Shown here piece after piece: positions 18,428-35,822 of a stretch of DNA of 64,000 nucleotides (within the stretch, counting starts at the first letter, position 1; every line of letters starts with the position of its first letter). The stretch is from Lacrimispora sp. Lineage in GTDB: Bacteria > Bacillota > Clostridia > Lachnospirales > Lachnospiraceae. Below the pieces are notes generated by a model, which ran no database searches, was not told the origin of the DNA, and saw nothing but the letters and a program-made list of their open reading frames with translations. The stretch is from NCBI RefSeq assembly GCF_046972725.1, contig NZ_JBKVXF010000003.1, positions 281,735-345,734 on the forward strand. The letters are read 5' to 3'. The position numbers were made by a program, and so were the translations under genes.

Positions 18428-18453
18428 GATGAGTGTTCGGGGAGGGACAAAAA

Positions 18454-21400: not shown

Positions 21401-24400
21401 TGACTGGGCGTGTTTCTCTCATGAGTGGCTTCTGGAATACCTCATTTGACAACCTTACTGTAACTCCTATAGAAGGAAAAGCCGCTTATGCATCTGAAAA
21501 ACCCGACGATACATCACCGCTTATCCGGTGGACAGGAGAGGTGACCCATAATATTGGTCAGGGCTTTGCTTTTTATAACCGCAGTTATACGGTGATGCTT
21601 CCGGGCTCCGGTATGGAATTTATAGTTCCTGACGGAACGGGATTTGATATTTTCGGAAAGTCAGGTTCGGCGAAGATTAAGGTGACGGTTGACGGCCAGG
21701 AGGAAGATGCAGTTACTCTTAACGGAGGAGACAGGGAAACTACGTTTTGGAAACAGAATTTACCAGCCGGACAGCATAAAGTTAAAATAGAGGTTACTGA
21801 GGGGACCTATCAGGTAGATGGGATTAATTTACTGGCAGAAGATGACACAGGATATAATGAGTTACATACAAAAGAATTGGAAGATATGATCAAGTATGTG
21901 AAGGAACATGAATTTGATTCTGTGAAATATCCGGAAGCTTTAATCAATCAGGTAAAGGCTGCACTTTCCGGCGCAGAGAAGGTACTGGCAGAAGATGCCA
22001 GCCAAAAAGACGTGGATATGGCCAGGATTGCACTTCGAAATGCATTTATAAGGGTAGTTCCGTCAGATACGATTGTAAGTATTAAAGAAGAATTAGGAAC
22101 AAAGATGGTGGTTCAAAATGGTATCCCAGAATTGCCGGATATGGTAACCGTAATCAATGCAGCTGGTGAAGAGAGCTTAAGGAATGTATCTTGGGAGATT
22201 GAGGATAAAGATTTTGGAACCTTGTGGGATACGGTTGAAGTAAGTGGCGAAATTGAAGAAACGGGATTTAAACTCAGTACCAGTGTTGTAGTGATACCCT
22301 ATGGATTGACCTGGTTTATAGACAGCGGGGTTGCAGACGTGGAGGACAGTGAAGGTGAGGCTGGTCATTCGTTGTTCTATGATCTTATTGCAGATTCTGT
22401 TGAATTAGAGAACAAAAGAGCAGATCAAAGGTATACAGAAGGTTCCTGGGGATATGTGGATGATAAAGATGTTGCGGTAAAGGGCAGCGGCAGTATCTCC
22501 TACAATACGGGAATCTATGATACAGGACTTTACGTAGATCATAACAAAGATACAGACATTATATACAAGCTTCCCATGAAAGCAGGAAAGTACAGGTTTA
22601 TGGTGGGCGCACAGGCCTATTGGGATGAGACTCACTCCGGAAAGGTTGAACTGCGCTATGAAACAGCCGATGGCGAAAAGAAAACAGTGGAATTGGGAAC
22701 TGTGACCGTTAGCGTTTCAGATAACAATATTTCTTTCAGCCAGACAGCGGAAATTCCTGTCGATGGCCTGGTAGAAGTCAGGATCAGGAATGCCGGTACA
22801 AAAATTCATTTAATCAGTTGGCTTGCAGTAGCCAGAGAAGCTGATGCAGAGCTTCCGGCTGTTTTGATTACGGAGCAGGGAAAGCTTCCAAAGCTTCCGG
22901 AGACGGTTATGGTGAATGGAGAAGAGCTGGAGGTTGACTGGAAAAAAAGGAAAGAAAGTGATTTCAGTGTACCCTGGACATCCGTAAACATCAGAGGTGA
23001 AGTAGCCGGAATAAATCTTCCGGTAATCATACCTGTAGAAGTCATACCTGAAAAATTGTGCTATTTTATTGACTCGGGAGTTACTGAGAATGAAAAATCA
23101 TCCTTTTATAACGCTGTAAATGAGGCCGTTGGAGGTCTATTAAATGAACTTCCTGACAAAATGTCAGACGGACAGTCCTGGGGATATGCAGACCGGGAGA
23201 GCCTGGGAGGTCCCATGGGGGAAGGAAGTGACAGCCGCAGTAAGACCGGCTGGTGGGCAAAAGAAGGAAAAGAAATCGTGTATAAACTTCCTTTGGAGGC
23301 AGGAACATATCAGTTTACGGGTGGTTTTTATGAGTGGTGGTCCGTAAAGCGTCCCATGGAGGCATATGTGGTTTATGAGAATGAAACTGGTGAGATGATG
23401 ACCGTTTCCCTTGGAAAGATAACCATATCAAAACCCGAAGAAGCCATATTAAAACCTAAAACGGATATCGTCATACCAATGGATCAGATAATTGAATTCC
23501 GGGTAAGGAAAACCGGAGACAGTGATCCTGTCATAAGCTGGATCGCAGTCAATGAAAGATCAGAAGCTGCTCTTCCGGAAGAGGATATTTATCATACAAC
23601 CAATATTAAGGTCACTCAGAAGCCTATTAAAGAACAATATGAGGTTGGTCAGGAGTTGGATAAAACGGGTATGGAGGTAAGGAGGTATGAAAAGGCCAGT
23701 CCCAGCAATGCAGTAAGGGAAGTCGTTCTGGAGGATGACGACTATGAAGTGGAATATGATTTTTCAGAGCCTGGGAAAAAGAAGGTTACCGTATCTTACA
23801 GCGAATGGGATGAGGACGGCACTGAAAAAACATTTACCGATTCCTTTATAGTGACCGTACAGGAAAAACTGATTGAAGAGGAATATTATACGAAAAAAAT
23901 CAGTGTTACCAGGAAACCACGAAAGATAAAATATAAAGTTGGAGAAGACTTGGATCGATCCGGAATGGAGGTTACGGAGTACAGAAAGGCCAGTCCCTCC
24001 AATGCAGTGAGAAAACATATTCTGTCAGAAGAAGAATATGATACGGAATACGATTTTTCAATCTCAGGAACCCGGAAGGTCAAGGTTATTTATTATGGTA
24101 CGGATAAACGGGGAGAAGAAAAGAAATTTACCGATTCATTTACTGTTAATGTAATTGAAGATAAAGATGTTGGCACTCCTGCGTTACCTGGCGATACTTC
24201 TGATGATGAAGATAATTATCATTCGGGCCGTCCGGTGCCGGAACCTGCGTATTATTATGGAACGTGGATACAGGATAAGGCTGGTTGGAGACTGAAAGGT
24301 ACAGACGGGACTTTTCCGAAAAACCGTTGGGCTTTGGTTAAGGAAAAAAATGGAGATGAGTGGTATTTCTTTGATGAAAACGGTTATATGCTGACTGGTT

Positions 24401-24603
24401 GGCTGCAATACGGGAATCAGCAATTTTATCTCAATCCAGTCAGTGACGGAACGAAGGGCCGCATGTTGACTGGTTGGCAGAAAATTGATAACGTTTGGTA
24501 TTACTTTGACAAAACGGAAGGTAAAAACATGGGCTCCATGCTTAAAAATACTGTGACACCAGATGGATACAAAGTAGGCTCGGACGGAGCCTGGGTCCGG
24601 TAA
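18454..24603 (+). CDS. Secreted, cell-wall-anchored multimodular glycoside hydrolase, GH59 (galactocerebrosidase-like) catalytic core
   Basis: GTG 18454 lies 7 nt after GGAGGG. The signal peptide is KTVCFMLSAAMLLTGLPGAG..AAQ. FGGFGSVTCNNTSRLLMDYKALHEEQYWKMMELLFDREKGAGLNHVKIELGADVNSSSGTEPATM parallels human GALC as I recall it ([59 protein letters not shown]). Candidate catalytic Glu residues lie in SPGQNERR and VWYGEST. There are three Ig-like plus CBM-like modules, two Big_3-like domains and C-terminal GW/YYFD cell-wall-binding repeats. Confidence 0.8.
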   Translation: MKTRNLVQKTVCFMLSAAMLLTGLPGAGPVTGLAAQYVIQEGEIPAKASSLEDLPSVVNCVEAGASIQTPKNITWEAEEGGSFYNAGSNVKVTGTITENGQKVTATVLAVPANVVYLVDANVYEPENSADFKRYKVEGNTSLLKNTVPDQAYIQGSWGGTGNTRKKGAVPELKDTKGYTGYYTEGGEAISYKLPLESGTYIVAAEFAEWWGNYSRTVDMKITYNDSSGKAVTKVLDTARLGARLSTDTAVGSFTIDNGQEVMLDFQRKEGTSEAAVLSGFTVIKAKEELPDAEYIPVTIDGDKIDKFNTFGGFGSVTCNNTSRLLMDYKALHEEQYWKMMELLFDREKGAGLNHVKIELGADVNSSSGTEPATMRSPDETPNVRRGAGFMFAADAKSINPDISVEILRWGEPKWTQEGIGYEEYDNPKFEARYQWYRKTIDAVYETYGYKITEVSPGQNERRKDYPDNFAWIKYCAQRFKEDGENGVGAFDYGEIKIVAADLYRGMGTTVDYMMKDQEFRDLVDVISDHYQIWLGSRNLDILNQEYGKEVWYGESTAPMINANYRANVDPLRGGIGGSAGIAAMAERLISAYAYKNADGYTSHMTELLFQPAIGAFYEGSAYSPKQLIGAFDPWSGYYEADGGIQMAEHFMKFADNDWNYLPDACYSDGKTGDGDIVADSSTDTRLALKDPVTDDYSVIFANNTSVERKYHLTLKNLKTVKNSYNIWETRGPDDGEAYDANWFQKIAEESQPHDNGDGTTAIELVVKPYSIVTLTSLTGRGTSYTAGQNDSGVERKVLGLPYRDNFDYEDSFIEERGGTPYFTTDLEGAFEVCRSEDTGYVLKQMINGENRPYNWNPWGSGSDESSQTTAVPWTVLGDHRWANYTAGIDVKLDTKGKGYGDNFAVLGVREVVHSSGAAYRAKIYDNGSWELLRFNKVQKSGKLEKFIPDQWHRLELKADENTITFYIDGEEAGSFTDESSPVMTGRVSLMSGFWNTSFDNLTVTPIEGKAAYASEKPDDTSPLIRWTGEVTHNIGQGFAFYNRSYTVMLPGSGMEFIVPDGTGFDIFGKSGSAKIKVTVDGQEEDAVTLNGGDRETTFWKQNLPAGQHKVKIEVTEGTYQVDGINLLAEDDTGYNELHTKELEDMIKYVKEHEFDSVKYPEALINQVKAALSGAEKVLAEDASQKDVDMARIALRNAFIRVVPSDTIVSIKEELGTKMVVQNGIPELPDMVTVINAAGEESLRNVSWEIEDKDFGTLWDTVEVSGEIEETGFKLSTSVVVIPYGLTWFIDSGVADVEDSEGEAGHSLFYDLIADSVELENKRADQRYTEGSWGYVDDKDVAVKGSGSISYNTGIYDTGLYVDHNKDTDIIYKLPMKAGKYRFMVGAQAYWDETHSGKVELRYETADGEKKTVELGTVTVSVSDNNISFSQTAEIPVDGLVEVRIRNAGTKIHLISWLAVAREADAELPAVLITEQGKLPKLPETVMVNGEELEVDWKKRKESDFSVPWTSVNIRGEVAGINLPVIIPVEVIPEKLCYFIDSGVTENEKSSFYNAVNEAVGGLLNELPDKMSDGQSWGYADRESLGGPMGEGSDSRSKTGWWAKEGKEIVYKLPLEAGTYQFTGGFYEWWSVKRPMEAYVVYENETGEMMTVSLGKITISKPEEAILKPKTDIVIPMDQIIEFRVRKTGDSDPVISWIAVNERSEAALPEEDIYHTTNIKVTQKPIKEQYEVGQELDKTGMEVRRYEKASPSNAVREVVLEDDDYEVEYDFSEPGKKKVTVSYSEWDEDGTEKTFTDSFIVTVQEKLIEEEYYTKKISVTRKPRKIKYKVGEDLDRSGMEVTEYRKASPSNAVRKHILSEEEYDTEYDFSISGTRKVKVIYYGTDKRGEEKKFTDSFTVNVIEDKDVGTPALPGDTSDDEDNYHSGRPVPEPAYYYGTWIQDKAGWRLKGTDGTFPKNRWALVKEKNGDEWYFFDENGYMLTGWLQYGNQQFYLNPVSDGTKGRMLTGWQKIDNVWYYFDKTEGKNMGSMLKNTVTPDGYKVGSDGAWVR
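18604..19310 (+). repeat. Module copy 1 (Ig-like strand set plus about 170-aa carbohydrate-binding-like domain) of the giant protein
   Basis: LPSVVNCVEAG...VTATVLAVPANVVYLVDANV...SWGGTG...ISYKLPLESGTYIVAAEFAEWW...AVLSGFTVIK is collinear with the copies at 22123 and 22880. Confidence 0.6.
22123..23556 (+). repeat. Module copies 2 and 3 in tandem (about 22123-22836 and 22880-23556)
   Basis: Copy 2 reads LPDMVTVINAAGE...VVIPYGLTWFIDSGV...SWGYVDDKD...IIYKLPMKAGKYRFMVGAQAYW...LISWLAVAR. Copy 3 reads LPETVMVNGEE...EVIPEKLCYFIDSGV...SWGYADRES...IVYKLPLEAGTYQFTGGFYEWW...VISWIAVNE. Confidence 0.65.
23596..24156 (+). repeat. Two tandem Big_3-like Ig domains (about 23596-23865 and 23884-24156)
   Basis: IKVTQKPIKEQYEVGQELDKTGMEVRRYEKASPSNAVREVVL..YEVEYDFS versus ISVTRKPRKIKYKVGEDLDRSGMEVTEYRKASPSNAVRKHIL..YDTEYDFS. 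Confidence 0.65.
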
Positions 24604-25790: not shown

Positions 25791-27143
25791 TTACTGAATA
25801 ATACCATTTACATCAACAACAAATACTTTGTCGTTATTATCTTTATAATCCTTGTATCCTGCTCCCAGTTCTGGCTTTACAACAGATTTGGAAGTAGAAG
25901 ATGCGGTCTGAACAACACCGCTTGTATTGACCAGATAATTTACTCCGTTAAGAGATACAGAAGCCAGTCTTAAATCAGAAGATGCTTCTTTTCTTAAACC
26001 GTATTCATAAACTGTTTTGTCCAGAATACCGGTATAGCCCTGTCCCTTTTTGGTTCCGGAAGTATGGAAATACCAGATCTCGTTTTCATCTAAGTCTTCG
26101 TTATAGATTGTTTGCTTTCCTGTATCCATGGTACCGTTGCTTGCGAAGTGGAAGTTTGCAACACTTCCGTCTTCCAGAGTAACGACTTTAAGACCAGTCT
26201 GCATTTCACCTTTTGTATTAAATCCATATTTCTGAGAATTTACAGTAAATAATTCAATTCCCTTTTTCGCATAGTATGGAGCACCGTCTTTAAAGAAGAA
26301 CCAGTGAAGTTCATCTTCTTTGCTGACACCGGAAATGCCTTCGATTTCTCTCCAGCCCTCCACTCTTGTGCCGTTATCAGGATCATAGTACTGGTATCCT
26401 GCTGCGGAATCTGCATTGTCGCTTGTATTTTCGGCCGCTTCTGATGAGGTTGCTTTTACCGGAAGTTTATACCAACCAGTCTGCATTTCTCCGTCTACGA
26501 ACGTATAGTAAGCACCGTTGATTTTTTTATCAACCTGATCTTTTACCATAACGCCGTCCTTATCAAAGTAGTACCAGGAGAGAGGGTTCTCCGAATCTTC
26601 GTTTACACTGTCAAGCTCAAACCAGCCGGTTTTCTGGGCACCGTCGTTTTCGTCTCCAAGATAATAGGTGTTACCGTCGATTTCAACCTTACCGGTCAGC
26701 ATCTGACCCTGCTCGTCAAAATAATACCACTTATCATCGATTTTCTGCCATTTGGATTCAACAGCCTTGCCGTCTTTTCCATAATAATGCCAGAAAACTT
26801 CCGGAGCGTCAGGGGAGTCCCAGTAGTTATCATTGTTTACAGAAATCCACTGATTTGTGACTCTTTTTCCGCTTTCATCAACGTAGTACTCTTCAATTTC
26901 CTGACTTGTTGCGATTTCGCCGTCTTCGTCTAAATAATACCAGTCATCACCATATTTTTTCCATGAATCGGTTGCATAGTAATCACCCTCTTCATAGAAT
27001 TTCCAGGAACCGTTTTCTTCTACCCAGCCAATTGCCTTTGCATAGGCAGTTGAAGCCGTGCTTAAGAAACCCAGCTCTGGAGCTGCGGCTGCTATTACAC
27101 CGGCAGCGGATAATACAGCCATCAATTTTAAGTGCTTTTTCAT
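25791..27143 (-). CDS. Secreted protein made almost entirely of cell-wall/choline-binding type repeats (CW_binding_1-like)
   Basis: Start set at MKKHLKLMAVLSAAGVIAAAAP (signal peptide, AAGGAGAG upstream). It has more than 10 degenerate about 20-aa repeats of the type GW..(D/E)..WYY(F/L)D..G.M. No catalytic domain was seen. Confidence 0.8.
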   Translation of the reverse strand: MKKHLKLMAVLSAAGVIAAAAPELGFLSTASTAYAKAIGWVEENGSWKFYEEGDYYATDSWKKYGDDWYYLDEDGEIATSQEIEEYYVDESGKRVTNQWISVNNDNYWDSPDAPEVFWHYYGKDGKAVESKWQKIDDKWYYFDEQGQMLTGKVEIDGNTYYLGDENDGAQKTGWFELDSVNEDSENPLSWYYFDKDGVMVKDQVDKKINGAYYTFVDGEMQTGWYKLPVKATSSEAAENTSDNADSAAGYQYYDPDNGTRVEGWREIEGISGVSKEDELHWFFFKDGAPYYAKKGIELFTVNSQKYGFNTKGEMQTGLKVVTLEDGSVANFHFASNGTMDTGKQTIYNEDLDENEIWYFHTSGTKKGQGYTGILDKTVYEYGLRKEASSDLRLASVSLNGVNYLVNTSGVVQTASSTSKSVVKPELGAGYKDYKDNNDKVFVVDVNGIIQ

Positions 27144-27344
27144 AAATATGTTCTCTCCTTTTTTGCAATAAGTTTTATCGTGGCCGAAAATCCATAGTTG
27201 CATTACTCTGCGATTATAACCCATCAGAAAGGTTCAAAGATAGTGTGGTTTCATGGCAGATATGGAAGGAGATAACATAATAAGAAAAAAGATGAGATTT
27301 CCAAGGGGTTTCCCACAGGTACAATGCCGGCAGAAAGTAAGAAA

Positions 27345-27421: not shown

Positions 27422-29356
27422 ATGAGAATGAAAGTATCCAACTATATTTCCGGAAAGCTTTTGGAAGCCGGAATCAGCCAGGTATTTACGGTCACAGGCG
27501 GAGGCGCCATGCATTTAAATGATGCACTTGGCCATGAAAAAGGATTGAACTGTCTGTATAATCACCACGAGCAGGCATGTGCCATAGCAGCAGAAGCCTA
27601 TGCCAGAATTCAGGGAAAGCTTGCTGCGGTCTGCGTGACCACGGGCCCTGGCGGGACCAATGCCATCACCGGAGTGCTTGGCGGCTGGCTGGATTCCATT
27701 CCCATGTTGATTCTGTCCGGACAAGTCCGCTATGACACCACAGCCAGATGGTCCGGTGTGGACATACGTGCCATGGGGGATCAGGAATTTGATATAGTAA
27801 AAGCGGTTGGCTGTATGACCAAATACAGCGAGATGGTCATTGATCCCATGAGGGTCCGTTACTGTCTGGAAAAAGCCATATATCTGGCCCTCTCCGGACG
27901 CCCCGGTCCCACCTGGCTGGATATTCCCCTCAATGTTCAGGGCGCTTACATTGAGACAGAAGATTTGATCGGTTTTTCTCCCGAGGATTATGAAAAGGGA
28001 GGTGACGGCTGGGCCGCTGCCAGTGAGGCAAAGATAAAAGAAGACCAGGCTTGTTACGGGGAAAAACGTCAGGCATTGCCAAAGCCTGTGTCAGCAGATA
28101 CAGCCAGAAAGATTCTTGAGAAGATAAAAGCATCTTCCCGTCCGGTCCTCAATGCCGGCAACGGAATCCGGATCGGACAGGCCCATGAAGTATTTCTTCG
28201 CGTATCAGAAAAACTTGGGATTCCGGTGGTTACCGGCTGGAACAGCCAGGACTGTATTTACGAAACGCATCCTCTCTACACCGGAAGAGGGGGAGGCATG
28301 GGCGACCGTGCCGGCAACTTTGCCGTTCAAAACAGTGATCTGGTCCTGTCCCTGGGAAGCCGCTTAAGCATCCGGCAGGTGGGTTATAACTATAAAACAT
28401 GGGCCAGAGGTGCCTATGTGATCGTGAATGATATTGATCCCGAGGAGCTGAAAAAGCCGTCGGTCCATGCAGATATGCGGGTCCATGCAGATGTAAAGGA
28501 TCTTCTTACGGCCTTGGAAGCAGTTTTGGATTCAGAATATCATGCAACTGCAAAAGCACCCCTTTTTAAAGGCGGAAAAGGAATTGATTCCATGAGCTGG
28601 AATGAGACTTGCCGCATGTGGAAAGAGAAGTACCCGGTCGTTCTTCCCAGGCATTACCGGCAGGGAGACGATGAGAATACCAATATTTATGCATTTATCA
28701 ATGAACTCAGCAGCAGAGGAGAAAAAGGGCAGATCACGGTGGTTGGGAACGGTTCTGCCTGTGTAGTAGGAGGGCATGCCTATCTTGTGAAGGAAGGACA
28801 GCGCTTTATTACCAATTCAGCGGTAGCCTCCATGGGCTATGATCTTCCGGCAGCCATCGGAGTCTGTATGGCAGATTCTTCCAAGGATATCATCCTTGTG
28901 ACTGGTGACGGAAGCATTCAGATGAATTTACAGGAATTGCAGACCATTATCCATCATCAGATGCCGATTAAGATATTTTTGATCAACAACGGAGGGTATC
29001 ATTCCATCCGTCAGACCCAGAAGAACTATTTCGGAGAACCGTTGGTGGGCGTGGGAGAGGACAGCAGGGATTTGAGCTTTCCCAGTATGGAAAAGCTTTC
29101 TGCGGCTTATGGATATCCCTATGTTTCCATCCGTCATAACGGAGAGATGAAGCAGGGCATTGAAGCGGCATTTGCCACAAAGGGCCCTGTGATCTGTGAG
29201 GTATTTGTAAGCAGGGACCAGAACTTTGAACCAAAGTCATCGGCAAAGCGTCTTCCGGACGGAACCATGGTATCTCCGCCTTTGGAGGATTTATCTCCGT
29301 TTCTTCCAGAGGAGGAGATGGAGCACAACATGATCATACCAAGAGTGAAAGGGTAA
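27422..29356 (+). CDS. Thiamine-diphosphate-dependent enzyme, acetolactate-synthase/YerE-like
   Basis: The N-terminal Pyr domain is VFTVTGGGAMHLNDAL...HHEQACAIAAEAYAR...TTGPGGTNAITGV. The ThDP motif is GDGSIQMNLQELQT...INNGGY. A roughly 50-aa insert (EDYEKGGDGWAAASEAKIKEDQACYGEKRQ) lies between the N-terminal and central domains. Confidence 0.85.
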   Translation: MRMKVSNYISGKLLEAGISQVFTVTGGGAMHLNDALGHEKGLNCLYNHHEQACAIAAEAYARIQGKLAAVCVTTGPGGTNAITGVLGGWLDSIPMLILSGQVRYDTTARWSGVDIRAMGDQEFDIVKAVGCMTKYSEMVIDPMRVRYCLEKAIYLALSGRPGPTWLDIPLNVQGAYIETEDLIGFSPEDYEKGGDGWAAASEAKIKEDQACYGEKRQALPKPVSADTARKILEKIKASSRPVLNAGNGIRIGQAHEVFLRVSEKLGIPVVTGWNSQDCIYETHPLYTGRGGGMGDRAGNFAVQNSDLVLSLGSRLSIRQVGYNYKTWARGAYVIVNDIDPEELKKPSVHADMRVHADVKDLLTALEAVLDSEYHATAKAPLFKGGKGIDSMSWNETCRMWKEKYPVVLPRHYRQGDDENTNIYAFINELSSRGEKGQITVVGNGSACVVGGHAYLVKEGQRFITNSAVASMGYDLPAAIGVCMADSSKDIILVTGDGSIQMNLQELQTIIHHQMPIKIFLINNGGYHSIRQTQKNYFGEPLVGVGEDSRDLSFPSMEKLSAAYGYPYVSIRHNGEMKQGIEAAFATKGPVICEVFVSRDQNFEPKSSAKRLPDGTMVSPPLEDLSPFLPEEEMEHNMIIPRVKG

Positions 29357-29388
29357 TATACCGTCAGTAAAGTTTGGGAGGAAGGACA

Positions 29389-30330
29389 TTGAACGTAGTT
29401 GTAACAGGGGCTTCCAGTTTCCTTGGAAGAGCACTGGTTGACCGGTTATTAAAAGACGGCAATCAAGTATATGCAGTTGTCCGTCCCGGATCAAAGAACC
29501 TTAATTGTCTTGATACGGGGCGGCAGGGACTGATACGGATCGAGCGGAACCTGGAAGAACTCCACAGGCTTGATGAAGTAATAAAAGAACCATGTCAGGC
29601 ATTTTACCATTTTGGCTGGGATGGTTCGGGCAGTGAGAACCGTTTGAACCGGGAGGTACAGCAGAAGAATACAGAGGATTCCTTAAAGGCTCTGGAGGGC
29701 GCCAGACGCTTAAAATGCAGGCGCTTTCTTTTCAGCGGCTCCCAGGCGGAGTACGGAATCCATAAGGAAGTCATGACAGAGGAGACACCATGCAGTCCTG
29801 TTTCCGAATATGGGCTGGCAAAGCTTGCCTTTTTGGAACAGGCAATGGAACAGACAAGGAAATGGAGGCAGGAAGGAATCTGCAGCATGGAGTATATCCA
29901 TGCAAGAATTTTCAGTGTCTACGGGCCTGGGGACCATCCCTGGTCCCTGGTGGAAAGCTGTGTCCGGGCATTTTCCAGGGGAGAATACATCTCTCTGGGA
30001 GAGTGCACACAAATGTGGAACTTTTTATATCTCGATGATTGCATCCGGGCGCTGATACTTTTGATGGAACAGGAAAAGGAATCGGTTTCCGGAATTTATA
30101 ATGTAGCAGGACCGGAAGAGGAAAACAGGCCTCTGAGGGACTATATCCGGATGATGTATGAGATTTTGGGATTTCACGGAAGCTACAGCTTCGGAAGACG
30201 AAAGCCCAATGCGGAAGGACCGGCCAATCTCATTCCTGATATAAAGAAACTGAAGGCAGCAACCGGTTTTGAGCCGGAGATACCCTTTGCTGAGGGGATT
30301 TTGAGAACTTACGAGGCAGAAAAACATTGA
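29389..30330 (+). CDS. NAD(P)-dependent epimerase/dehydratase family (extended SDR) protein
   Basis: VVVTGASSFLGRALV (Rossmann), SEYGLAKLA (YxxxK) and IFSVYGPGD are present. I prefer TTG 29389, after GGGAGGAAGG. Confidence 0.8.
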   Translation: MNVVVTGASSFLGRALVDRLLKDGNQVYAVVRPGSKNLNCLDTGRQGLIRIERNLEELHRLDEVIKEPCQAFYHFGWDGSGSENRLNREVQQKNTEDSLKALEGARRLKCRRFLFSGSQAEYGIHKEVMTEETPCSPVSEYGLAKLAFLEQAMEQTRKWRQEGICSMEYIHARIFSVYGPGDHPWSLVESCVRAFSRGEYISLGECTQMWNFLYLDDCIRALILLMEQEKESVSGIYNVAGPEEENRPLRDYIRMMYEILGFHGSYSFGRRKPNAEGPANLIPDIKKLKAATGFEPEIPFAEGILRTYEAEKH

Positions 30331-30350
30331 CAGGAAAGGATTTTTGTGGT

Positions 30351-31544
30351 ATGAGAGATAGGATTTGTATTGTATGCGGCAGACCTTTGGGAGAGAAGCC
30401 TTTAATGATTCTGGATCACATGCCGGCTTCCGCACAGGATATTCCGGAGAAAGAGGACCTGGCAGAAGAGAAAGGGATCACTCTCCGTCTTCACCAGTGT
30501 GAAGCATGCGGCCTAGTACAGTTTGACTGTGAGCCGGTGGCATATTATAAAGACGTCATCCGGTCCGGGGGATTCAGCACCACCATGGTGGAGTTAAGAA
30601 GGCGCCAGTACCGGCATTTTATAGATACGTATCACTTAGAAGGAAAGAAACTGATTGAGGTTGGCTGCGGACAGGGGGAATTTCTTTCTGTGCTGTCAGA
30701 ATTTCCTGTGAATGCTTACGGGATTGAGAACCGGGACAGCCTGGTGGATTTGGCAAAGGAAAAGGGCCTTAAGGTCTGGAAGCAGTTTGCGGAGGAAGGA
30801 CAGGTCCTTGCCCCGGCAGATGGAAGTGCAGGCGGACCCTATGACGGCTTTTTGTCCTTTAATTTTCTGGAGCATCAGCCACAGCCTGTTTCCATGCTTC
30901 GCTGCATTGCAGAGAATCTGACGGAAGATGGTGTCGGCCTGATTACGGTCCCGAGTCTGGAGTACATTCTTCAGTATGACGGCTATTACGAACTCATCCG
31001 GGATCATCTGGCTTATTACACCTTTGAGACTCTGCGTTATGCGGTGGAAACAGCCGGCTTTGAAGTTCTGGAAGAGGAGATGGTCAACCGGGATACCCTG
31101 TCCGTAATTGTAAGAAAAAGAAAAGGGACGGCCGGGCAGCAAAGCCATGAAAGAAGAACAGAAAAAATCCATGTATCCGGCCTGATACAAAGCCAGGACA
31201 CCATTGCACGGGAGATGAGCGGGCTGATCCGGGAATTAAAGGACCAGGGAAAGACCCTTGCTGTATGGGGGGCAAGCCATCAGGGCTTTACCCTTGCCTC
31301 CACCACTGAAATCGGAGCGTTTGCTCAGTATATGATAGATTCCGCTCCCTTCAAACAGGGAAAATATGCACCTGCCTCCCATCTTCTTATTGTGCCTCCG
31401 GGCCATTACCACAGTCATCCTGTGGATGCCATATTAATTGTGGCTCCCGGCTACACGGAAGAGATCGCAGGTACCATAAAGGAAAAATTTGGACAGAATA
31501 TCGAGATTCTGGCATTGAAATCCAATCATCTGGAAAGGATATAA
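30351..31544 (+). CDS. NDP-hexose C-methyltransferase family protein (zinc-ribbon N-domain, SAM domain, C-methyltransferase C-domain)
   Basis: CIVCG...CEACGLV form the Zn-ribbon and LIEVGCGQGEFL is the SAM motif. The C-terminal GKTLAVWGASHQGFTLAS...YMIDSAPFKQGKYAPASHLLIVPP...DAILIVAPGYTEEI matches my recollection of the TylC3-type C-terminal domain (GASAKG...DDNPLKQGKYTPGSHIPI). Confidence 0.75.
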   Translation: MRDRICIVCGRPLGEKPLMILDHMPASAQDIPEKEDLAEEKGITLRLHQCEACGLVQFDCEPVAYYKDVIRSGGFSTTMVELRRRQYRHFIDTYHLEGKKLIEVGCGQGEFLSVLSEFPVNAYGIENRDSLVDLAKEKGLKVWKQFAEEGQVLAPADGSAGGPYDGFLSFNFLEHQPQPVSMLRCIAENLTEDGVGLITVPSLEYILQYDGYYELIRDHLAYYTFETLRYAVETAGFEVLEEEMVNRDTLSVIVRKRKGTAGQQSHERRTEKIHVSGLIQSQDTIAREMSGLIRELKDQGKTLAVWGASHQGFTLASTTEIGAFAQYMIDSAPFKQGKYAPASHLLIVPPGHYHSHPVDAILIVAPGYTEEIAGTIKEKFGQNIEILALKSNHLERI

Positions 31545-31553
31545 GAAAAAACT

Positions 31554-32621
31554 ATGAAAGCTTTTGTTTTAATCGAACCGGGAAAAGTGGGCTGGCATGA
31601 TGCGCCGGAACCGGTGCTCACTCCATACGGAGCCATTCTCCGGCCAGTTGCTGTAACCCCTTGTTCCTCTGATGTCCATACCGTATACGGCGGCGGCTCA
31701 AGAAAGGCCCCTAATCTGATCCTGGGCCATGAATGCGTTGCTGAAATCCTGGAAATCGGAGAGCTTGTTCAGGATTTTAAACCGGGGGATGTGGTTGCAG
31801 TTCCTGCCATCACTCCGGACTGGAGAGCCATGGGAATCCAGGAAGGCAATTATAAGCATGCCTCCGCACCTTTTTCCGGTCATCAGCTGGGGCGCTCCAT
31901 GCCAGGGGTGTTTGCCGAAAAATTTTTGATTCCGGATGCGGACACCACATTGGCAAAGATTCCGGAAGGAGTCACACTGGAACAGGCGCTCATGTGTGTG
32001 GATGTGGTGACTACCGGCTTTACTGGCGCAGAATTTGCGGATATTAAGATCGGTGACACGGTGGTGGTATTGGGAATCGGTCCCATCGGCCTTATGGCAG
32101 TGGAAGGTGCCCGCCATCTTGGCGCGGCCAGAATCCTTGCGGTAGGCAGCCGTCCGGTTTGTGTGGAGCTTGCAAAAGAATTTGGTGCCACAGAAGTATT
32201 AAGCTATAAAGACGGGGATGTGGTAGAGCAGGTGATGGCGCGGACGGAGGGCCTTGGGGCAGACAGTGTGATTATCTGCGGCGGCGGAGATGAAGTTTTT
32301 ACCCAGGCGGTTGACATGGTCCGGTATGGCATCGGAACTGTTTCCAATGTAAACTATTACGGCGGAACCGGAAGCCTTTCCTTCCCTAAATTTTCCGGCG
32401 GACGGGGAATGGCTGGAAAAACCATTCATACGGAGCTGGCAAAAGGCGGCAGGGTAAGAATCGGGAGACTGCTTCAGATGGTCCGGTACGGAAGGATCAA
32501 TCCGCAGAAGCTGGTGACCCATCGCCTTTTTGGACTTGATGCAGTGGAGACAGCCCTGCAGATGATGAAGGAAAAGCCCAGGGATTTGATTAAAGTTATG
32601 GTACAGATAGATTGGAAGTGA
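31554..32621 (+). CDS. Zinc-dependent, probably NADP-dependent, secondary-alcohol-dehydrogenase-like enzyme (TbADH/CbADH type)
   Basis: Collinear over its whole length with TbADH/CbADH as I recall them. Zn ligand contexts are PCSSDVHT (Cys37), LGHECV (His59) and CVDVVTTGF (Asp150). GIGPIGL and the NADP-determinant VGSRPVCVE are present, with LIKVMV at the C-terminus. Confidence 0.8.
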   Translation: MKAFVLIEPGKVGWHDAPEPVLTPYGAILRPVAVTPCSSDVHTVYGGGSRKAPNLILGHECVAEILEIGELVQDFKPGDVVAVPAITPDWRAMGIQEGNYKHASAPFSGHQLGRSMPGVFAEKFLIPDADTTLAKIPEGVTLEQALMCVDVVTTGFTGAEFADIKIGDTVVVLGIGPIGLMAVEGARHLGAARILAVGSRPVCVELAKEFGATEVLSYKDGDVVEQVMARTEGLGADSVIICGGGDEVFTQAVDMVRYGIGTVSNVNYYGGTGSLSFPKFSGGRGMAGKTIHTELAKGGRVRIGRLLQMVRYGRINPQKLVTHRLFGLDAVETALQMMKEKPRDLIKVMVQIDWK

Positions 32622-32625: not shown

Positions 32626-33639
32626 ATGAAAACAATAAGCGTCGTAGTTCCCTGTTACAATGAGGAAGAAAATGTAGAGGCCCTGCACCAGGCCATATCC
32701 GGTGTATTTAAGAAAGAACTGCCGGAGTATTGCTATGAGATCATCTTTATTGACAATGATTCCAGGGACAGGACCAGAGAGATTATAAGGAAGCTTTGTT
32801 CTTTGGATCAGGGGGTAAAAGGAATTTTTAATGCAAAAAATTTCGGTCAGTTCAACTCCCCCTATTATGCCATGCTCCAGTCCACGGGAGACGCCACCAT
32901 TTTAATGGCAGCGGATTTCCAGGACCCGGTGGAGATGATTCCAAAGTATGTGAAGGAATGGGAGAATGGATATAAGATCGTAATCGGTATCAAGAAGTCA
33001 AGCAAGGAAAACAGGATTATGTACTGGCTTCGGAGCTGTTATTACAAATGCATCAAAAAGCTTTCTGATGTGGAACAGATCGAGCATTTTACCGGCTTTG
33101 GACTCTATGATGCCAGGTTTATCAAGGTTTTAAAAGAGCTTGATGATCCCACGCCGTTCTTGCGGGGGATTGTGGCAGAGCTGGGCTTCCGGAGGAAGGA
33201 GATACCCTACGAACAGCCCAAACGGCGTGCCGGAAAAACCAGCAATAATTTTTACCGCCTGTATGATGCCGCCATGTTAAGTATCACTTCCTATACAAAG
33301 GTAGGACTTCGTATTGCCACCATATTCGGAAGCATCTGTTCTTTTGCCAGTATGCTGGTGGCACTGATTTACCTGATTATGAAGCTGATGTATTGGGACC
33401 GTTTCCCGGCAGGCATGGCCCCTCTTTTGATCGGCATGTGCTTTCTTGGTTCTGTGCAGATCTTTTTTATCGGTATGGTGGGAGAATACATTCTTTCCAT
33501 CAATGCACGTATCATGAAACGGCCTTTGGTGATTGAAGAAGAAAGAATTAATTTTACATCCGGGCAGGAAAATGAACCGGAGGAGGATATGCTTCTAACA
33601 GCAGCCTCTATGGAGGATGGGAACAGAGATGAAATATAA
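32626..33639 (+). CDS. GT2 polyprenyl-phosphate glycosyltransferase (GtrB/ArnC/GacI-like) with two C-terminal TM helices
   Basis: ISVVVPCYNEEENV, IFIDNDSRD and AADFQDP are present. C-terminal helices are IATIFGSICSFASMLVALIYL and LLIGMCFLGSVQIFFIGMVGEY. Confidence 0.85.
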   Translation: MKTISVVVPCYNEEENVEALHQAISGVFKKELPEYCYEIIFIDNDSRDRTREIIRKLCSLDQGVKGIFNAKNFGQFNSPYYAMLQSTGDATILMAADFQDPVEMIPKYVKEWENGYKIVIGIKKSSKENRIMYWLRSCYYKCIKKLSDVEQIEHFTGFGLYDARFIKVLKELDDPTPFLRGIVAELGFRRKEIPYEQPKRRAGKTSNNFYRLYDAAMLSITSYTKVGLRIATIFGSICSFASMLVALIYLIMKLMYWDRFPAGMAPLLIGMCFLGSVQIFFIGMVGEYILSINARIMKRPLVIEEERINFTSGQENEPEEDMLLTAASMEDGNRDEI

Positions 33640-35821
33640 GATAGATGTAGCAAGAATCCGTGAAAATTCCATCGTGTTAAATGGCTGGGTCATCGGAAAT
33701 ACACTGGAATCGGAAGCAAGGTTTGAAGTCCTGGACGGTCAGGAGCAAATGGTGGATTTCAAATATGTTCCGGTACGCAGAGACGACGTAAGTCAGATCT
33801 ATTTCAAGAAGACTTCAAAAAAGGACCTGGGATTTGACATAAGGATTCCGTATATCAGAGAGAATAACGAAGACCGGATTCTGGTAATCCACTGTGACGG
33901 AAAGTCTGCCCGGGTGAAATTAAATGCCCGGATCATCGAAAAACAGAACAGCTCTGCCCATAAAAAGACGGTAAAGCTGAAAAGCATGATGAATATGCAG
34001 ACGTTTCATTCCGCAGCAGATTTCTTAAAGGAAAACGGACTCAAAGCCTTTTTGCTCAAATCCAGACATAAGCTTCAGGGAATCGACAGCGATTATGACT
34101 ATCCGGAATGGTATGAGCTGACAAAACCTTCGGAGGAAGAACTGGAAGCACAGAAAAAAGAAGTATTTGATTACAATCCTAAAATGTCTGTTGTCATCCC
34201 TGCCTATAAGACGCCGGAGCGTTTTCTTGCAGCCATGCTGGATTCTCTGCTGGGCCAGACCTACACAAACTGGGAGGTGTGTATCGCAGACGGAAGCCCG
34301 AAAGGAGAAAGTGTGGAACGGGTATTGAAGCGGTACGCATTAAAAGATGAAAGAATCCGCTATCTGATCCTTGGAGAGAATAAAGGGATTTCCGGGAATA
34401 CCAATGCGGCTATTGAGATGGCAACCGGAGATTTTATCGTTTTGGCGGACCATGACGATACCCTGGCCCCCAATGCCTTATATGAATGTGTAAAAGCCAT
34501 TAATTCCGACCCTGAGATCGACGTTGTCTACACCGATGAAGACAAGCTTGATATAGACGGGGGAGAATTATTTGAGCCTCATTTCAAACCTGATTTTAAC
34601 CCTGATCTTTTAACCAGCGTCAACTACATCTGTCATTTATTCGTGGTGAACCACGAACTGCTTTTGGAAGTGGGCGGATTCAGGGAAGAATTTGACGGAG
34701 CACAGGATTATGATTTTATTCTTCGCTGTACGGAAAAGGCCAGAAGGATTTACCATGTGCCAAAGGCACTGTATCACTGGCGCTGCCACCAGAACTCTAC
34801 AGCCAGCAATCCGGAAAGCAAATTATATGCCTTTGAGGCAGGGGCGAGAGCGGTAAAAGCCCATTATGACCGGATCGGAGTAAAGGCTTTGTCTGTTGAA
34901 AAAGGCATTGATTACGGCATTTATCATTCGGTCTTTGAAATCACAGGAGATCCTCTGGTATCTGTCATTATCCCGAACAAGGACCATTCTGCCGATCTGG
35001 ATCTCTGCATGCGCTCGGTGATTGATAAATCAACCTATAAGAATCTGGAGTTCATTGTTGTGGAAAATAACAGTACGGAACCGGAAACCTTTGAATATTA
35101 TGAAAAGATCCAGAAAGAATTTGATTTTGTCCATGTGGTGAAATGGGAGAAGGAATTTAACTATTCTGCCATCAATAACTTTGGCGTCACCTATGCAAAA
35201 GGCGAATATCTTCTGTTTTTAAATAATGATACGGAGATCATTAATCCGGATAGCATTACCGAGATGTTAGGCTTCTGCCAGCGGGAGGACGTGGGAGTTG
35301 TGGGGGTAAGGCTTCTCTATTCGGATGACACCATTCAGCATGCCGGAGTGGTCGTTGGCTTTGGCGGCATTGCAGGACATACCTTTATTGGGCTTCATAA
35401 ATCGGAAAGCAGCTACTTTAACCAGGCCATGTGTGCCAGGAATTACAGCGCCGTAACCGCTGCCTGTATGATGAGCAAGCGTTCCTTATTTGACAAGGTG
35501 GGCGGCTTTTCTGAAGATTTAGCCGTCGCTTTTAATGACATTGATTATTGCATGAAGATCCGTTCCCTGAATAAATTGGTGGTCTATGCGCCTTATGCCT
35601 TGTTCTATCATTATGAATCCAAATCAAGGGGACTGGAGGATACACCGGAAAAGATAGCCCGCTTTAACCGGGAGATCAAAAAATTCTCTGATAAATGGCC
35701 GGATATCTTAAGAGACGGAGACCCCTATTACAATCCAAATCTGACCCTGCGTAAATCCAACTTTGCCCTTCGTGACCTCCGGAAAGAAAAAATCGGAGAA
35801 CCCTATAAACTTGAGGTATGA
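33629..35821 (+). CDS. Bifunctional-type glycosyltransferase with two GT2 domains and an about 180-aa N-terminal domain of unknown function
   Basis: GT2 domain 1 shows MSVVIPAYKTPERFL...LADHDD. GT2 domain 2 shows VSVIIPNKDHSADL...FLNNDTE...QHAGVV. I prefer ATG 33629, which overlaps the previous gene. Confidence 0.8.
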   Translation: MKYKIDVARIRENSIVLNGWVIGNTLESEARFEVLDGQEQMVDFKYVPVRRDDVSQIYFKKTSKKDLGFDIRIPYIRENNEDRILVIHCDGKSARVKLNARIIEKQNSSAHKKTVKLKSMMNMQTFHSAADFLKENGLKAFLLKSRHKLQGIDSDYDYPEWYELTKPSEEELEAQKKEVFDYNPKMSVVIPAYKTPERFLAAMLDSLLGQTYTNWEVCIADGSPKGESVERVLKRYALKDERIRYLILGENKGISGNTNAAIEMATGDFIVLADHDDTLAPNALYECVKAINSDPEIDVVYTDEDKLDIDGGELFEPHFKPDFNPDLLTSVNYICHLFVVNHELLLEVGGFREEFDGAQDYDFILRCTEKARRIYHVPKALYHWRCHQNSTASNPESKLYAFEAGARAVKAHYDRIGVKALSVEKGIDYGIYHSVFEITGDPLVSVIIPNKDHSADLDLCMRSVIDKSTYKNLEFIVVENNSTEPETFEYYEKIQKEFDFVHVVKWEKEFNYSAINNFGVTYAKGEYLLFLNNDTEIINPDSITEMLGFCQREDVGVVGVRLLYSDDTIQHAGVVVGFGGIAGHTFIGLHKSESSYFNQAMCARNYSAVTAACMMSKRSLFDKVGGFSEDLAVAFNDIDYCMKIRSLNKLVVYAPYALFYHYESKSRGLEDTPEKIARFNREIKKFSDKWPDILRDGDPYYNPNLTLRKSNFALRDLRKEKIGEPYKLEV

Positions 35822-35822
35822 G

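Follow-up and report, generated by a model that had tools for sequence, protein, structure and literature searches.

A conserved four-enzyme cassette in a Lacrimispora wall-polysaccharide operon probably serves the synthesis of a carbon-branched sugar

Four closely spaced enzyme genes at the head of a wall-polysaccharide operon in Lacrimispora sp. raise the question of what they contribute to the polymer. The window, i.e. the whole stretch of 64,000 nucleotides analysed here, carries on its plus strand a putative ThDP carboligase gene (27422-29356, 644 aa), followed by genes for an extended SDR of the NADP(H) type (SDR1; 29374-30330, 318 aa), a C-methyltransferase of the TcaB9/TylC3 NDP-sugar type (30327-31544, 405 aa) and an NADP-dependent zinc MDR reductase (ADH; 31554-32621, 355 aa). 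All four reading frames lie where the original prediction had placed them, with a 17-nt gap between the first two, a 4-nt overlap between SDR1 and the methyltransferase, a 9-nt gap before the ADH and 4 nt between the ADH and the next gene. Profile searches also recovered the set expected downstream on the same strand, namely three GT2 genes, a priming transferase and an LCP ligase. Next to the first GT2 gene (GT2a, 32626-33639), there is one encoding a glycosyltransferase with two GT2 domains, probably acting in polymer synthesis (33617-35821; Pfam Glycos_transf_2 in two stretches, 4.1e-47), which keeps 67-94% identity in related loci, and a third one (35763-36812; Pfam 1.2e-30) that is conserved there as well. 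These are followed by a WcaJ-type priming undecaprenyl-phosphate hexose-1-phosphate transferase (36893-38329; TIGR03023, 497 bits with a cut-off of 411) and an LCP-family enzyme predicted to ligate the glycopolymer to peptidoglycan (38366-40273; Pfam LytR_cpsA_psr 5.7e-33, TIGR00350 above cut-off). From homology and gene order, we consider it reasonably probable that the genes from 27422 to 32621 form a nucleotide-sugar tailoring line, which would provide the wall polysaccharide of this operon with a carbon-branched sugar.

The ThDP enzyme shares the fold and the three ThDP domains of AHAS (Pfam TPP_enzyme_N, M and C, about 1e-30 apiece), and public annotations label its homologues 'acetolactate synthase'. 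However, it scores below the cut-off of every NCBIfam acetolactate synthase model (310 bits for the top model, TIGR00118, with a cut-off of 538) and, unlike AHAS (IlvB/IlvI/IlvG), it has no small-subunit gene. Its closest solved relative is JanthE from Janthinobacterium sp. HH01 (PDB 8rph; 2.7e-118, 399 bits, nearly full length), ahead of PpYerE (5ahk; 6.7e-62, 213 bits) and the plant AHAS (at most 197 bits). It is 38% identical to JanthE, 31% to PpYerE and 27% to both IlvB and IlvI, and in a neighbour-joining tree it groups with JanthE, in a clade separate from E. coli IlvB/IlvI. The failed cut-offs, the ranking of the solved structures and the tree all set the enzyme apart from ordinary AHAS, as had been supposed, and together with the gene context this homology supports its assignment to the YerE/JanthE/ErwE-type carboligase family. 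JanthE itself is a characterised ketone-accepting YerE-like lyase (PMC12188165, PMC12247030), although it is an in vitro carboligase whose physiological substrate is not known (PMC12188165). The AHAS-type middle domain binds FAD in JanthE and YerE. In the window protein, the catalytic Glu lies in HHEQ and the ThDP motif is a canonical GDG-X24-NN, whereas JanthE has an unusual CDG; the protein also differs from JanthE by about 40 extra residues that separate its N-terminal from its middle domain.

More than 150 clusters (50% identity) match this ThDP family at E < 1e-104, and the surroundings of some relatives are informative. One of them (locus L085) is accompanied by an NTP-transferase, a 4,6-dehydratase, DegT and a C-methyltransferase, another one (L086) by an NTP-transferase, a dehydratase, an SDR and a GT2. 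A third locus (L094) holds the full ErwE-type set of DegT, NTP-transferase, 4,6-dehydratase, HpcH aldolase and SDRs, together with an acetaldehyde dehydrogenase and a DmpG aldolase, and this gene set agrees with the published unifying scheme for acyl-branched sugars (PMC9306805). The scheme covers YerE/YerF from the yersiniose A pathway of Yersinia pseudotuberculosis and ErwE/ErwF from that of erwiniose (PMC9306805, PMC12247030). The cassette resembles these systems in that an AHAS-like ThDP enzyme lies beside an NAD(P)H reductase within a surface-glycan locus, and its ThDP family also occurs in clusters that combine donor aldolases with the complete set of genes for CDP/NDP-4-keto-3,6-dideoxyhexoses (L094, L085). 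In contrast to them, the host is a Gram-positive member of the Lachnospiraceae and the product would be an LCP-anchored wall polymer and not LPS. The operon also lacks ddh/E1/E3, the 4,6-dehydratase and the donor aldolase, possesses an extra TylC3-type C-methyltransferase and a second reductase, and appears to hand its product to a polyprenyl-phosphate glycosyltransferase. Moreover, its ThDP sequence is nearer to JanthE than to PpYerE.

The same gene order is found in at least 80 species-level genomes of Lacrimispora, Hungatella and Enterocloster, and such repetition shows that the juxtaposition of these genes is not a result of chance. Comparison of the 80 related loci reveals a core module of the ThDP enzyme, an NADPH-type SDR and a GtrB/ArnC-like GT2, as well as an accessory module of the C-methyltransferase and a second reductase. 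This reductase is the ADH in 29 loci and a paralogous SDR in 38, and the accessory unit is absent from seven loci. Replacement of the ADH by a paralogous NADPH-type SDR is a case of non-orthologous displacement, affecting a simple reduction step. Two single loci do not fit well: in L052 the ThDP gene is directly followed by GT2a without the SDR, and in L034 the ThDP-SDR pair has no glycosyltransferases nearby. Homology and this gene context support the participation of all four enzymes in one pathway, and on the same grounds the original prediction of a branched-sugar pathway combining a YerE-type carboligase with a TylC3-type C-methyltransferase holds.

The methyltransferase shows the architecture known from TcaB9, TylC3 and EryBIII, with a CxxC...CxxC (Cys4) zinc module, a SAM domain (Pfam Methyltransf_23, 1.7e-19) and a C-terminal domain. 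The latter, whose absence would have spoken against a C-methyltransferase, exceeds its cut-off clearly (Methyltransf_14, 54.6 bits with a cut-off of 23.5), while the zinc domain stays below threshold (Methyltransf_13, 22.3 bits with a cut-off of 31.3). Residues 13-383 align with TcaB9, however with low similarity (2e-19); His181 and His225 have equivalents in the window enzyme and Glu224 is replaced by Asp, but the active-site residues Tyr76 and Tyr222 have no counterpart. Identity reaches 33% with a C-methyltransferase from a Zoogloeaceae NDP-sugar cluster in which a ThDP homologue is also encoded. Unlike the antibiotic cluster enzymes, the window methyltransferase is encoded in a primary wall-glycan operon, and in 11 loci it is fused with SDR1 or with the paralogous SDR (SDR2) to a single reading frame (SDR1-CMT, CMT-SDR2). 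Homology and gene context thus support an NDP-ketosugar methyltransferase of the TcaB9/TylC3 type.

The ADH possesses the domains ADH_N and ADH_zinc_N (Pfam) and belongs to the family of TbADH from Thermoanaerobacter brockii and CbADH from Clostridium beijerinckii (1e-114 against the solved structures, 51% identity to TbADH). The zinc ligands C37/H59/E60/D150 and the NADP determinants G198/S199/R200/Y218 of these enzymes are retained, in line with what had been read from the sequence before. The substrate pocket is another matter. Seven changes relative to TbADH (M106P, L107F, W110H, K111Q, N114R, C283R and C295A) lie at or beside it, among them the classical substrate-scope residues W110 and C295 as well as new arginines at positions 114 and 283. 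Six of the seven are shared by the window enzyme and every one of the 31 orthologues, and K111Q alone varies, with Arg in one orthologue (L075). The enzyme also differs from TbADH and CbADH in being encoded in a glycan operon and not in a context of solvent metabolism. It is clearly a predicted ketoreductase of the cassette pathway. The original prediction went further and made it the enzyme that reduces the acetyl branch; this special role is not established, since the ADH belongs to the optional unit, gives way to an SDR paralogue in 38 of the 80 loci and is missing from seven, and it is SDR1 that forms the constant partner of the ThDP gene.

This constant partner is found across phyla in a position that matches that of yerF and erwF (PMC9306805). 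In SDR1 (Pfam Epimerase, 1.6e-35), strand beta-2 is followed by an Arg (VVRPGS) that does not vary among 6 homologues, all of which also carry the Ser-Tyr-Lys triad. SDR1 and its homologues do not have the Asp that characterises enzymes binding NAD+ tightly. Orthologues adjoin the ThDP gene in L016 (64% identity), L036 (49%), L034 (33%) and L084 (34%, E 4e-45). Homology and gene context support an NADPH-type enzyme for SDR1 as well as for the ADH, and its neighbouring position makes SDR1 a candidate YerF-like reductase. The best solved relatives, on the other hand, are MoeE5, UDP-Glc(A) 4-epimerases and UXS (1e-19 to 1e-14), compared with only 2e-10 for a dedicated GDP-4-keto reductase.

All three GT2 genes of the original prediction are present, but it overlooked the type of the first one. 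GT2a matches PgfS (2.3e-50) and ArnC (1.8e-30) over its full length and carries two C-terminal hydrophobic helices, as do the glycosyltransferases of the three-component systems GtrB/CsbB-YfhO, ArnC-ArnT and PgfS. Homology and context support a polyprenyl-phosphate glycosyltransferase, which changes the probable route of the sugar to the polymer. Both NCBIfam matches stay below the equivalog cut-offs, so the cargo sugar is probably none of those known. Unlike in the three-component systems, no GT-C transferase or small flippase was found beside the operon, nor any GT-C partner of the YfhO or ArnT type in the window, and such a partner is present in only one of the related loci. In L084, a ThDP-SDR-GT2a trio (54%, 34% and 60% identity) directly precedes a YfhO GT-C gene, and this locus also contains a separate 4,6-dehydratase-like gene in addition to the SDR1 orthologue.

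Taken together, the most likely product is a nucleotide sugar with acyl and methyl branching. It would be loaded onto undecaprenyl phosphate and decorate the wall polymer. The ThDP enzyme would decarboxylate a simple 2-keto acid, most likely pyruvate, since the operon offers neither an aldolase nor a NeuB-type gene that could supply a longer donor. The resulting acyl anion would attack the carbonyl group of an NDP-keto-sugar made elsewhere in the genome, giving an acetyl-branched tertiary alcohol. SDR1 might then reduce a carbonyl with NADPH in the role of YerF. In this genome, the methyltransferase of the optional unit would then add a C-methyl group beside a carbonyl in a SAM-dependent reaction and the TbADH-like enzyme would perform a second NADPH-dependent ketoreduction. 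GT2a would transfer the finished sugar to undecaprenyl phosphate, and after flipping the sugar might become a side-chain substituent of the polymer. Assembly of this polymer would fall to the priming transferase and the other two GT2s, and its anchoring to peptidoglycan to the LCP enzyme. However, one carboligation creates only one new ketone, but there are two NADPH reductases, which means that at least one step of this scheme is missing or misassigned. The operon is conserved in many gut Lachnospiraceae, a group without a reported carbon-branched sugar of this kind: in the literature searched we found none for the Lacrimispora/Hungatella/Enterocloster clade, and the one structure that turned up there belongs to the capsule of C. 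bolteae, with a plain Man-D-Rha disaccharide (PMC7040508).

As predicted, the Pfam and NCBIfam matches within the operon include no nucleotidyltransferase, no 4,6-dehydratase and no other obvious keto-sugar source. The only such route in the window is formed by manC, gmd and an Rmd-like SDR (12459-15549, plus strand), with a phosphomannomutase in the neighbourhood. The gmd gene proposed earlier as a donor source (13550-14584) is genuine (TIGR01472, 484 bits with an equivalog cut-off of 415), and its product GDP-4-keto-6-deoxymannose is a possible acceptor for the ThDP enzyme. However, a role of its own is obvious for gmd, as a partner of manC and the Rmd-like gene in a pathway of the GDP-D-rhamnose type, and only 3 of the 80 related loci have gmd at a distance of up to 10 kb from the cassette.

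A self-contained pathway would need no such source: SDR1 might oxidise a common NDP-sugar, for instance at C4, to the acceptor ketone, the ThDP enzyme would trap it irreversibly, and the ADH, or SDR2 in other genera, would reduce the acyl branch. We regard this as possible but doubtful. It would explain why a dehydratase or keto-sugar source is absent from the operon and most of the 80 related loci, it gives a single step to each reductase and leaves the redox balance neutral, it matches the role originally given to the ADH, and the solved relatives of SDR1 named above use a transient C4 ketone on UDP-sugars. Loci with only the ThDP enzyme and SDR1 would then produce an unreduced acetyl branch. 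The NADP(H) reductase signature of SDR1 and all its homologues argues against such an oxidation, as do the coexistence of a dehydratase-like gene with the SDR1 orthologue in L084 and the position of yerF and erwF, which adjoin yerE and erwE as reductases (PMC9306805).

It is considerably less probable that a free sugar or a sugar phosphate is branched first and activated later, or that the cassette makes a teichoic-acid-like polyol unit with a TarJ-like ADH. MDR zinc reductases do make polyols for wall polymers, the precedent being the ribulose-5-phosphate reductase TarJ, and distant ThDP relatives are fused to or lie beside a PMI-type cupin isomerase domain, HAD phosphatases, NeuB or an HldE-like kinase/nucleotidyltransferase. 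However, these partners occur neither in the operon nor in the 80 related loci, and the HAD and NeuB partners can equally be explained by the supply of a long 2-keto-acid donor (PMC9306805). In addition, both SDRs, like the methyltransferase, belong to nucleotide-sugar enzyme types, and the ADH is interchangeable with an extended SDR of this kind.

An ordinary anabolic or catabolic acetolactate synthase that serves branched-chain amino acids or, with the ADH, acetoin/2,3-butanediol formation and has glycan neighbours by chance is already disfavoured and highly improbable: the names of the top NCBIfam models and the reduction of small methyl ketones by TbADH-like enzymes would fit, but all cut-offs are missed by far, identity to JanthE exceeds that to IlvB/IlvI, the adjacent genes include neither a regulatory small subunit nor an acetolactate decarboxylase or an ilv gene, the linkage to glycosyltransferases is strict in at least 80 genomes, and the ADH has a remodelled pocket and can be replaced by a sugar-type SDR.

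Upstream of the operon and transcribed divergently from it (25791-27224, minus strand), there is a gene for a cell-wall-binding repeat protein of the choline-binding/CROP type, with repeat matches (Pfam Choline_bind_1/2/3) over the whole length. A divergent gene of this kind is present upstream of the operon in 74 of the 80 related loci, and its product may bind the polymer.

The cassette at the head of the wall-polysaccharide operon can best be regarded as the counterpart, in a Gram-positive wall polysaccharide, of the scheme by which the published ThDP enzyme/reductase pair YerE/YerF builds acyl-branched sugars. It differs from that scheme by an additional C-methyltransferase of the TylC3 type and by a second reductase, which in Lacrimispora is a recruited homolog of secondary alcohol dehydrogenases. 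The four genes predicted for positions 27422-32621 were found exactly there, all on the plus strand. They encode a ThDP-dependent carboligase (27422-29356, 644 aa; Pfam TPP_enzyme_N, M and C, each approximately 1e-30), a protein with the extended-SDR 'Epimerase' domain of Pfam (SDR1; 29374-30330, 318 aa), the C-methyltransferase (CMT; 30327-31544, 405 aa; Methyltransf_23 and Methyltransf_14, with Methyltransf_13 below the threshold) and a TbADH-like reductase (ADH; 31554-32621, 355 aa; ADH_N and ADH_zinc_N). A gap of 17 nt separates the ThDP gene from SDR1, SDR1 and CMT overlap by 4 nt, CMT and ADH are 9 nt apart and ADH is followed after 4 nt by the first GT2 gene (GT2a). According to Pfam and NCBIfam, the 3' part of the operon consists, as had been claimed, of three GT2 genes, a WcaJ-type priming phosphotransferase (above the NCBIfam cut-off) and an LCP ligase, with housekeeping genes downstream of the latter, and the same searches agreed with the original prediction that the operon contains neither a nucleotidyltransferase nor a 4,6-dehydratase. 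An Rfam scan of the whole window revealed no riboswitch or other RNA element, and the scan for promoters and terminators gave no signal clearly above shuffled expectation.

The assignment to this scheme starts from the ThDP enzyme. Its translation contains the catalytic glutamate in an HHEQ motif and the canonical GDG-X24-NN motif, whereas JanthE, a YerE-like carboligase that accepts ketones, has a CDG motif instead. Compared with solved structures, the enzyme scores by far highest against 8rph (399 bits, E 2.7e-118), followed by 5ahk, the structure of PpYerE, with 213 bits and plant AHAS with at most 197 bits; PpYerE, the one YerE in this comparison, exceeds AHAS by a small margin. Sequence identity amounts to 38% with JanthE, 31% with PpYerE and 27% with both IlvI and IlvB. 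In a neighbor-joining tree, calculated without bootstrap and with JanthE and PpYerE sequences rebuilt from their aligned regions only, the enzyme groups with JanthE and the library representatives, apart from IlvB and IlvI of E. coli, and PpYerE is the sister of this clade. The structure 8rph is that of JanthE itself, described as 'YerE-like', which joins 2-keto acids to ketones and whose physiological substrate is unknown (PMC12188165). The proposed grouping with YerE-type enzymes rather than with AHAS is thus borne out by the structure scores, led by JanthE, and by the phylogeny.

An ordinary biosynthetic acetolactate synthase is one alternative. The best NCBIfam match is indeed TIGR00118, but its score of 310 bits stays below the cut-off (538); all other acetolactate synthase models lie far below their thresholds, and none of the called ORFs next to the ThDP gene resembles the small subunits IlvN or IlvH. 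The enzyme is not an ordinary acetolactate synthase. Roles as phosphonopyruvate decarboxylase, sulfoacetaldehyde acetyltransferase or glyoxylate carboligase were rejected, since the corresponding scores are below those of the acetolactate synthase-type models and far below that of JanthE.

The NADP-type reductase SDR1 adjoins the ThDP gene, a pairing that recurs in the related loci L016, L034, L036 and L084, and by this position it resembles the NAD(P)H-dependent reductases YerF and ErwF of the published YerE/YerF and ErwE/ErwF pairs. In many other genomes the place of ADH is taken by a second extended SDR (SDR2), which is 38% identical to SDR1. Both have kept the Ser-Tyr-Lys triad and an invariant arginine immediately after strand beta-2 (VVRPGS). 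An arginine at this site is characteristic of NADP(H)-dependent reductases and not of epimerases with tightly bound NAD+, and SDR1 and SDR2 are predicted to be such reductases. SDR1 may alternatively act in the oxidative direction and produce the keto-sugar acceptor, as its closest solved relatives are UDP-sugar C4 epimerases and decarboxylases (1e-19 to 1e-14); however, the arginine after beta-2 speaks for a reductase.

CMT reaches 54.6 bits with Methyltransf_14 (cut-off 23.5) and 70.6 bits with Methyltransf_23, next to 22.3 bits with Methyltransf_13 (cut-off 31.3), so that the expected C-terminal domain of C-methyltransferases is present. It aligns with TcaB9 over residues 13-383, both CxxC pairs match the zinc site of TcaB9, and the architecture of an N-terminal Cys4 zinc module, a SAM domain and a C-terminal Methyltransf_14 domain is common to CMT, TcaB9 and TylC3. 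In the active site, numbered as in the TcaB9 mutant structures (Tyr76, His181, Tyr222, Glu224, His225), CMT retains counterparts of His181 and His225 but has aspartate in place of Glu224 and isoleucine in place of both Tyr76 and Tyr222.

ADH is 51% identical to TbADH, and its alignment contains the anticipated zinc site (C37/H59/E60/D150) as well as the NADP determinants (G198/S199/R200/Y218). The substrate pocket is different. TbADH has a small hydrophobic pocket formed by Ile86, Leu107, Trp110 and Cys295, whereas the cassette ADH carries L107F, W110H and C295A; all 31 cassette orthologs share these three exchanges together with M106P, N114R and C283R, and position K111 is glutamine in all of them but one, which has arginine. 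W110 and C295 are the classical positions for altering the substrate scope in TbADH/TeSADH engineering. The mechanism of ADH is probably that of TbADH, but the protein is probably not an acetone/2-propanol enzyme, and the new histidine and arginine residues would fit a substrate that is polar and anionic.

The annotated sources of close homologs (80-91% identity) are Lacrimispora species, and in L. xylanolytica synteny extends over the whole neighborhood, from the GH59 gene upstream of the operon to the LCP gene. The conservation scan, with one genome per species, gave 593 confirmed stretches, and the best 80 of them (66-90% identity), which come from Lacrimispora, Hungatella, Enterocloster, Ventrimonas and unnamed Lachnospiraceae, were analyzed. 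Nearly all of these 80 loci show the conserved operon that had been postulated, in the order of a divergent gene for a cell-wall-binding-repeat (CWB) protein, the ThDP gene, the tailoring genes, GT2a, the two further GT2 genes, the priming transferase and LCP. The tailoring segment is variable: among the best 80 of 593, the window type ThDP-SDR1-CMT-ADH is present in 29 loci and the type ThDP-SDR1-CMT-SDR2 in 38, including H. hathewayi DSM 13479 and Enterocloster, while seven loci have ThDP-SDR1 alone; L. xylanolytica belongs to the first of these types and H. hathewayi WAL-18680 to the last. Single loci have an SDR1-CMT fusion without a second reductase (L082), the ThDP gene directly followed by GT2a (L052) or a ThDP-SDR1 pair remote from any glycosyltransferase (L034), and three contigs are truncated. 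Fusions into one ORF occur between SDR1 and CMT in seven of the 80 loci, mostly Hungatella MAGs, and between CMT and SDR2 in four; examples of the one or the other are L047 11894-14182, L082 11903-14104, L019 12769-15132 and L065 13178-15403. Since these enzymes can be fused and ADH can be exchanged for a reductase of an unrelated fold, the four enzymes should act on one substrate line and the step of ADH should be a plain ketoreduction. The idea of a branched sugar in this wall operon therefore held with regard to the grouping of the ThDP enzyme, the conservation of the operon and the C-terminal domain of CMT.

Some of these loci deserve separate mention. In L034 (10001-12863), a Lachnospiraceae MAG, the ThDP and SDR genes (73% and 33% identity) stand in another context, with no glycosyltransferases nearby, and are flanked by a topoisomerase gene on one side and by an AraC regulator, an MDR dehydrogenase, a DHquinase-like gene and GH31 on the other. 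Four contigs labelled as Bacteroides thetaiotaomicron MAG, Prevotella sp. or Paenibacillaceae MAGs (L031, L074, L008, L011) contain the operon at 68-81% identity and are probably mis-binned or mislabelled rather than cases of real transfer. In H. hathewayi DSM 13479 (L016), a phage-integrase-family gene (8974-9783) lies between the CWB-repeat and ThDP genes, which hints at the operon head as a recombination hot spot, in keeping with the cassette variants.

One carboligation creates one ketone, and two NADPH-dependent reductases therefore imply another one; this further ketone could be the one that CMT would require for enolate chemistry. As there is no aldolase or NeuB-type gene, pyruvate or 2-oxobutyrate is the more plausible donor. 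Upstream of the GH59 gene there are pmm, an Rmd-like SDR, a genuine gmd and manC, followed by an IS110 transposase and a Wzt/GT4 cluster of low GC content. The gmd gene, a possible source of the acceptor, is located 13 kb upstream of the cassette; with manC, rmd and pmm it forms a separate set in a part of the window where the GC content differs, and only three of the best 80 of 593 related loci have gmd within 10 kb of the cassette. The capsule of C. bolteae is a Man-D-Rha disaccharide (PMC7040508), and a capsule of this kind would already account for genes of the manC-gmd-rmd-pmm type.

Genes for acceptor synthesis (NTP-transferase, dehydratase), which are absent from the window operon, are present in distant relatives. 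An exhaustive search showed that the ThDP family comprises 2480 clusters at 50% identity with E-values up to 1e-30, more than 150 of them with E below 1e-104. In L085 (Zoogloeaceae), whose ThDP enzyme is 42% identical by alignment, genes for an NTP-transferase, a 4,6-dehydratase, a DegT/E1-like protein, the ThDP enzyme, a HAD protein, radical-SAM enzymes and a C-methyltransferase with 33% identity to CMT are found together, and L086 (Roizmanbacteria) combines an NTP-transferase, a dehydratase, NeuB, the ThDP enzyme, an SDR, methyltransferases and a GT2. In L094 the ErwE-type set is complete, with DegT, NTP-transferase, 4,6-dehydratase, acetaldehyde dehydrogenase and DmpG aldolase, HpcH aldolase, ThDP enzyme, SDRs and Wzx, which matches the published layout for erwiniose (PMC9306805). 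These nucleotide-sugar clusters fit the published unifying scheme, in which an NDP-keto-sugar is branched by a ThDP-dependent enzyme and the side chain is then reduced by NAD(P)H, with aldolases providing longer donors where needed (PMC9306805, PMC12247030). Other distant members (P0140, P0156, P0236, P0198, L083, L090 8499-12433 and L091 366-2936) have an N-terminal PMI-type cupin (KPWGYE...HCH...DLxRLxDxYGRE), a C-terminal HAD phosphatase or a C-terminal methyltransferase as fusion partner, and in L090 a NeuB-cupin fusion precedes the ThDP-HAD fusion. Such fusions suggest ulosonic-acid-type or sugar-phosphate substrates in those lineages. The metagenomic locus L091, with a ThDP-methyltransferase fusion, a C-methyltransferase and an MDR ADH, is only analogous to the cassette, since the ADHs are 26% identical and the methyltransferases give no BLAST match.

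GT2a (32626-33639) matches the NCBIfam models of PgfS (2.3e-50; residues 4-305 on model positions 3-304 of 308) and ArnC (1.8e-30) over their full length, and an N-terminal GT2 domain and two hydrophobic C-terminal helices can be seen in its sequence. It therefore looks like a polyprenyl-phosphate glycosyltransferase of the GtrB/ArnC type and not like a polymerizing enzyme, and since it scores below the equivalog cut-offs of PgfS and ArnC, it should be a different member of this family. L084, whose ThDP enzyme, SDR and GT2 are 54%, 34% and 60% identical to those of the window, has a YfhO-family GT-C gene immediately 3' of this trio, and its ThDP protein belongs to a cluster of 2133 members. 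A search with this YfhO protein detected no homolog in the window and a single weak one among the related loci (L051). A polytopic membrane protein of 648 aa with a large C-terminal soluble domain (10286-12232, plus strand), encoded directly upstream of manC-gmd, has no match in Pfam, NCBIfam or PDB and no homolog in the best 80 of 593 related loci; it is possibly an unrecognized GT-C-type transferase or polymerase. The cassette is probably coupled to a route of lipid-carrier glycosylation. The most economical reading is that its product would be loaded onto undecaprenyl phosphate and then decorate, outside the membrane, a separately built polymer, which would be primed by the WcaJ-type enzyme, assembled by the two other GT2s and attached by the LCP ligase.

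Taken further, the cassette sugar might combine a two-carbon branch of acyl origin with a C-methyl branch and be transferred via undecaprenyl phosphate to form the characteristic side chain on the main wall polysaccharide of the Lacrimispora/Hungatella/Enterocloster clade, with genus variants that have the acetyl-derived branch only or the methyl branch as well, of the ADH or the SDR type. We put this forward tentatively and consider it, in its entirety, less likely than not. Our literature search yielded no natural sugar with both branches. The YerE-type acyl-branched sugars known so far are constituents of antibiotics or of lipoglycans from Gram-negative bacteria and mycobacteria (PMC4753412, PMC12247030). 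The accessible portions of the literature on Clostridium, Lachnospiraceae and Gram-positive wall polymers mention no branched sugar, and a survey of more than 200 YerE-like clusters, cited in PMC12247030, could include this locus type. This type of locus occurs widely among gut Lachnospiraceae, and no counterpart of the predicted sugar has been described. The locus sets the JanthE-like family in a defined and experimentally tractable pathway of culturable gut commensals and opportunists (Hungatella hathewayi, Enterocloster, Lacrimispora). The variants offer natural 'knock-outs' of the cassette for comparison, which makes the proposal directly testable. If it is true, the Gram-positive cell-wall repertoire would gain a new sugar and JanthE-like biocatalysts a natural substrate. 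The secondary-ADH scaffold would then serve an unexpected use, on a substrate that is a nucleotide sugar or is linked to a lipid, and abundant gut Clostridia would have a candidate species- or genus-specific surface antigen.

The CWB protein (25791-27224, minus strand; 477 aa) consists over its full length of choline-binding/CROP-type repeats according to Pfam and repeat matches, has a homolog with 47-92% identity at the same position in 74 of the best 80 of 593 related loci and may be a binder of the operon's polymer. An extension of the proposal, less likely than the branched side chain itself, is that the decorated polymer serves as ligand of the CWB-repeat proteins beside the operon, as phosphocholine does in pneumococci. 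The secreted GH59 (galactocerebrosidase-like) protein (18433-24603, plus strand; 2056 aa), with Big_3, CE2_N and C-terminal cell-wall-binding repeats, is kept at 66-73% identity in the closest Lacrimispora loci (L001-L004) and could be a hydrolase of the same or a competing glycan.

At its start, the window contains a further set of glycan genes. Positions 1-10052 have a GC content of 27-31%, compared to approximately 45% elsewhere, and encode a Wzt ABC-transporter ATPase with glycan-binding C-domain, a methyltransferase, three GT4s, a GT2 and GtrA, followed by an IS110-family transposase (8841-10052, minus strand). This block seems to be a second polysaccharide cluster that was acquired by horizontal transfer.
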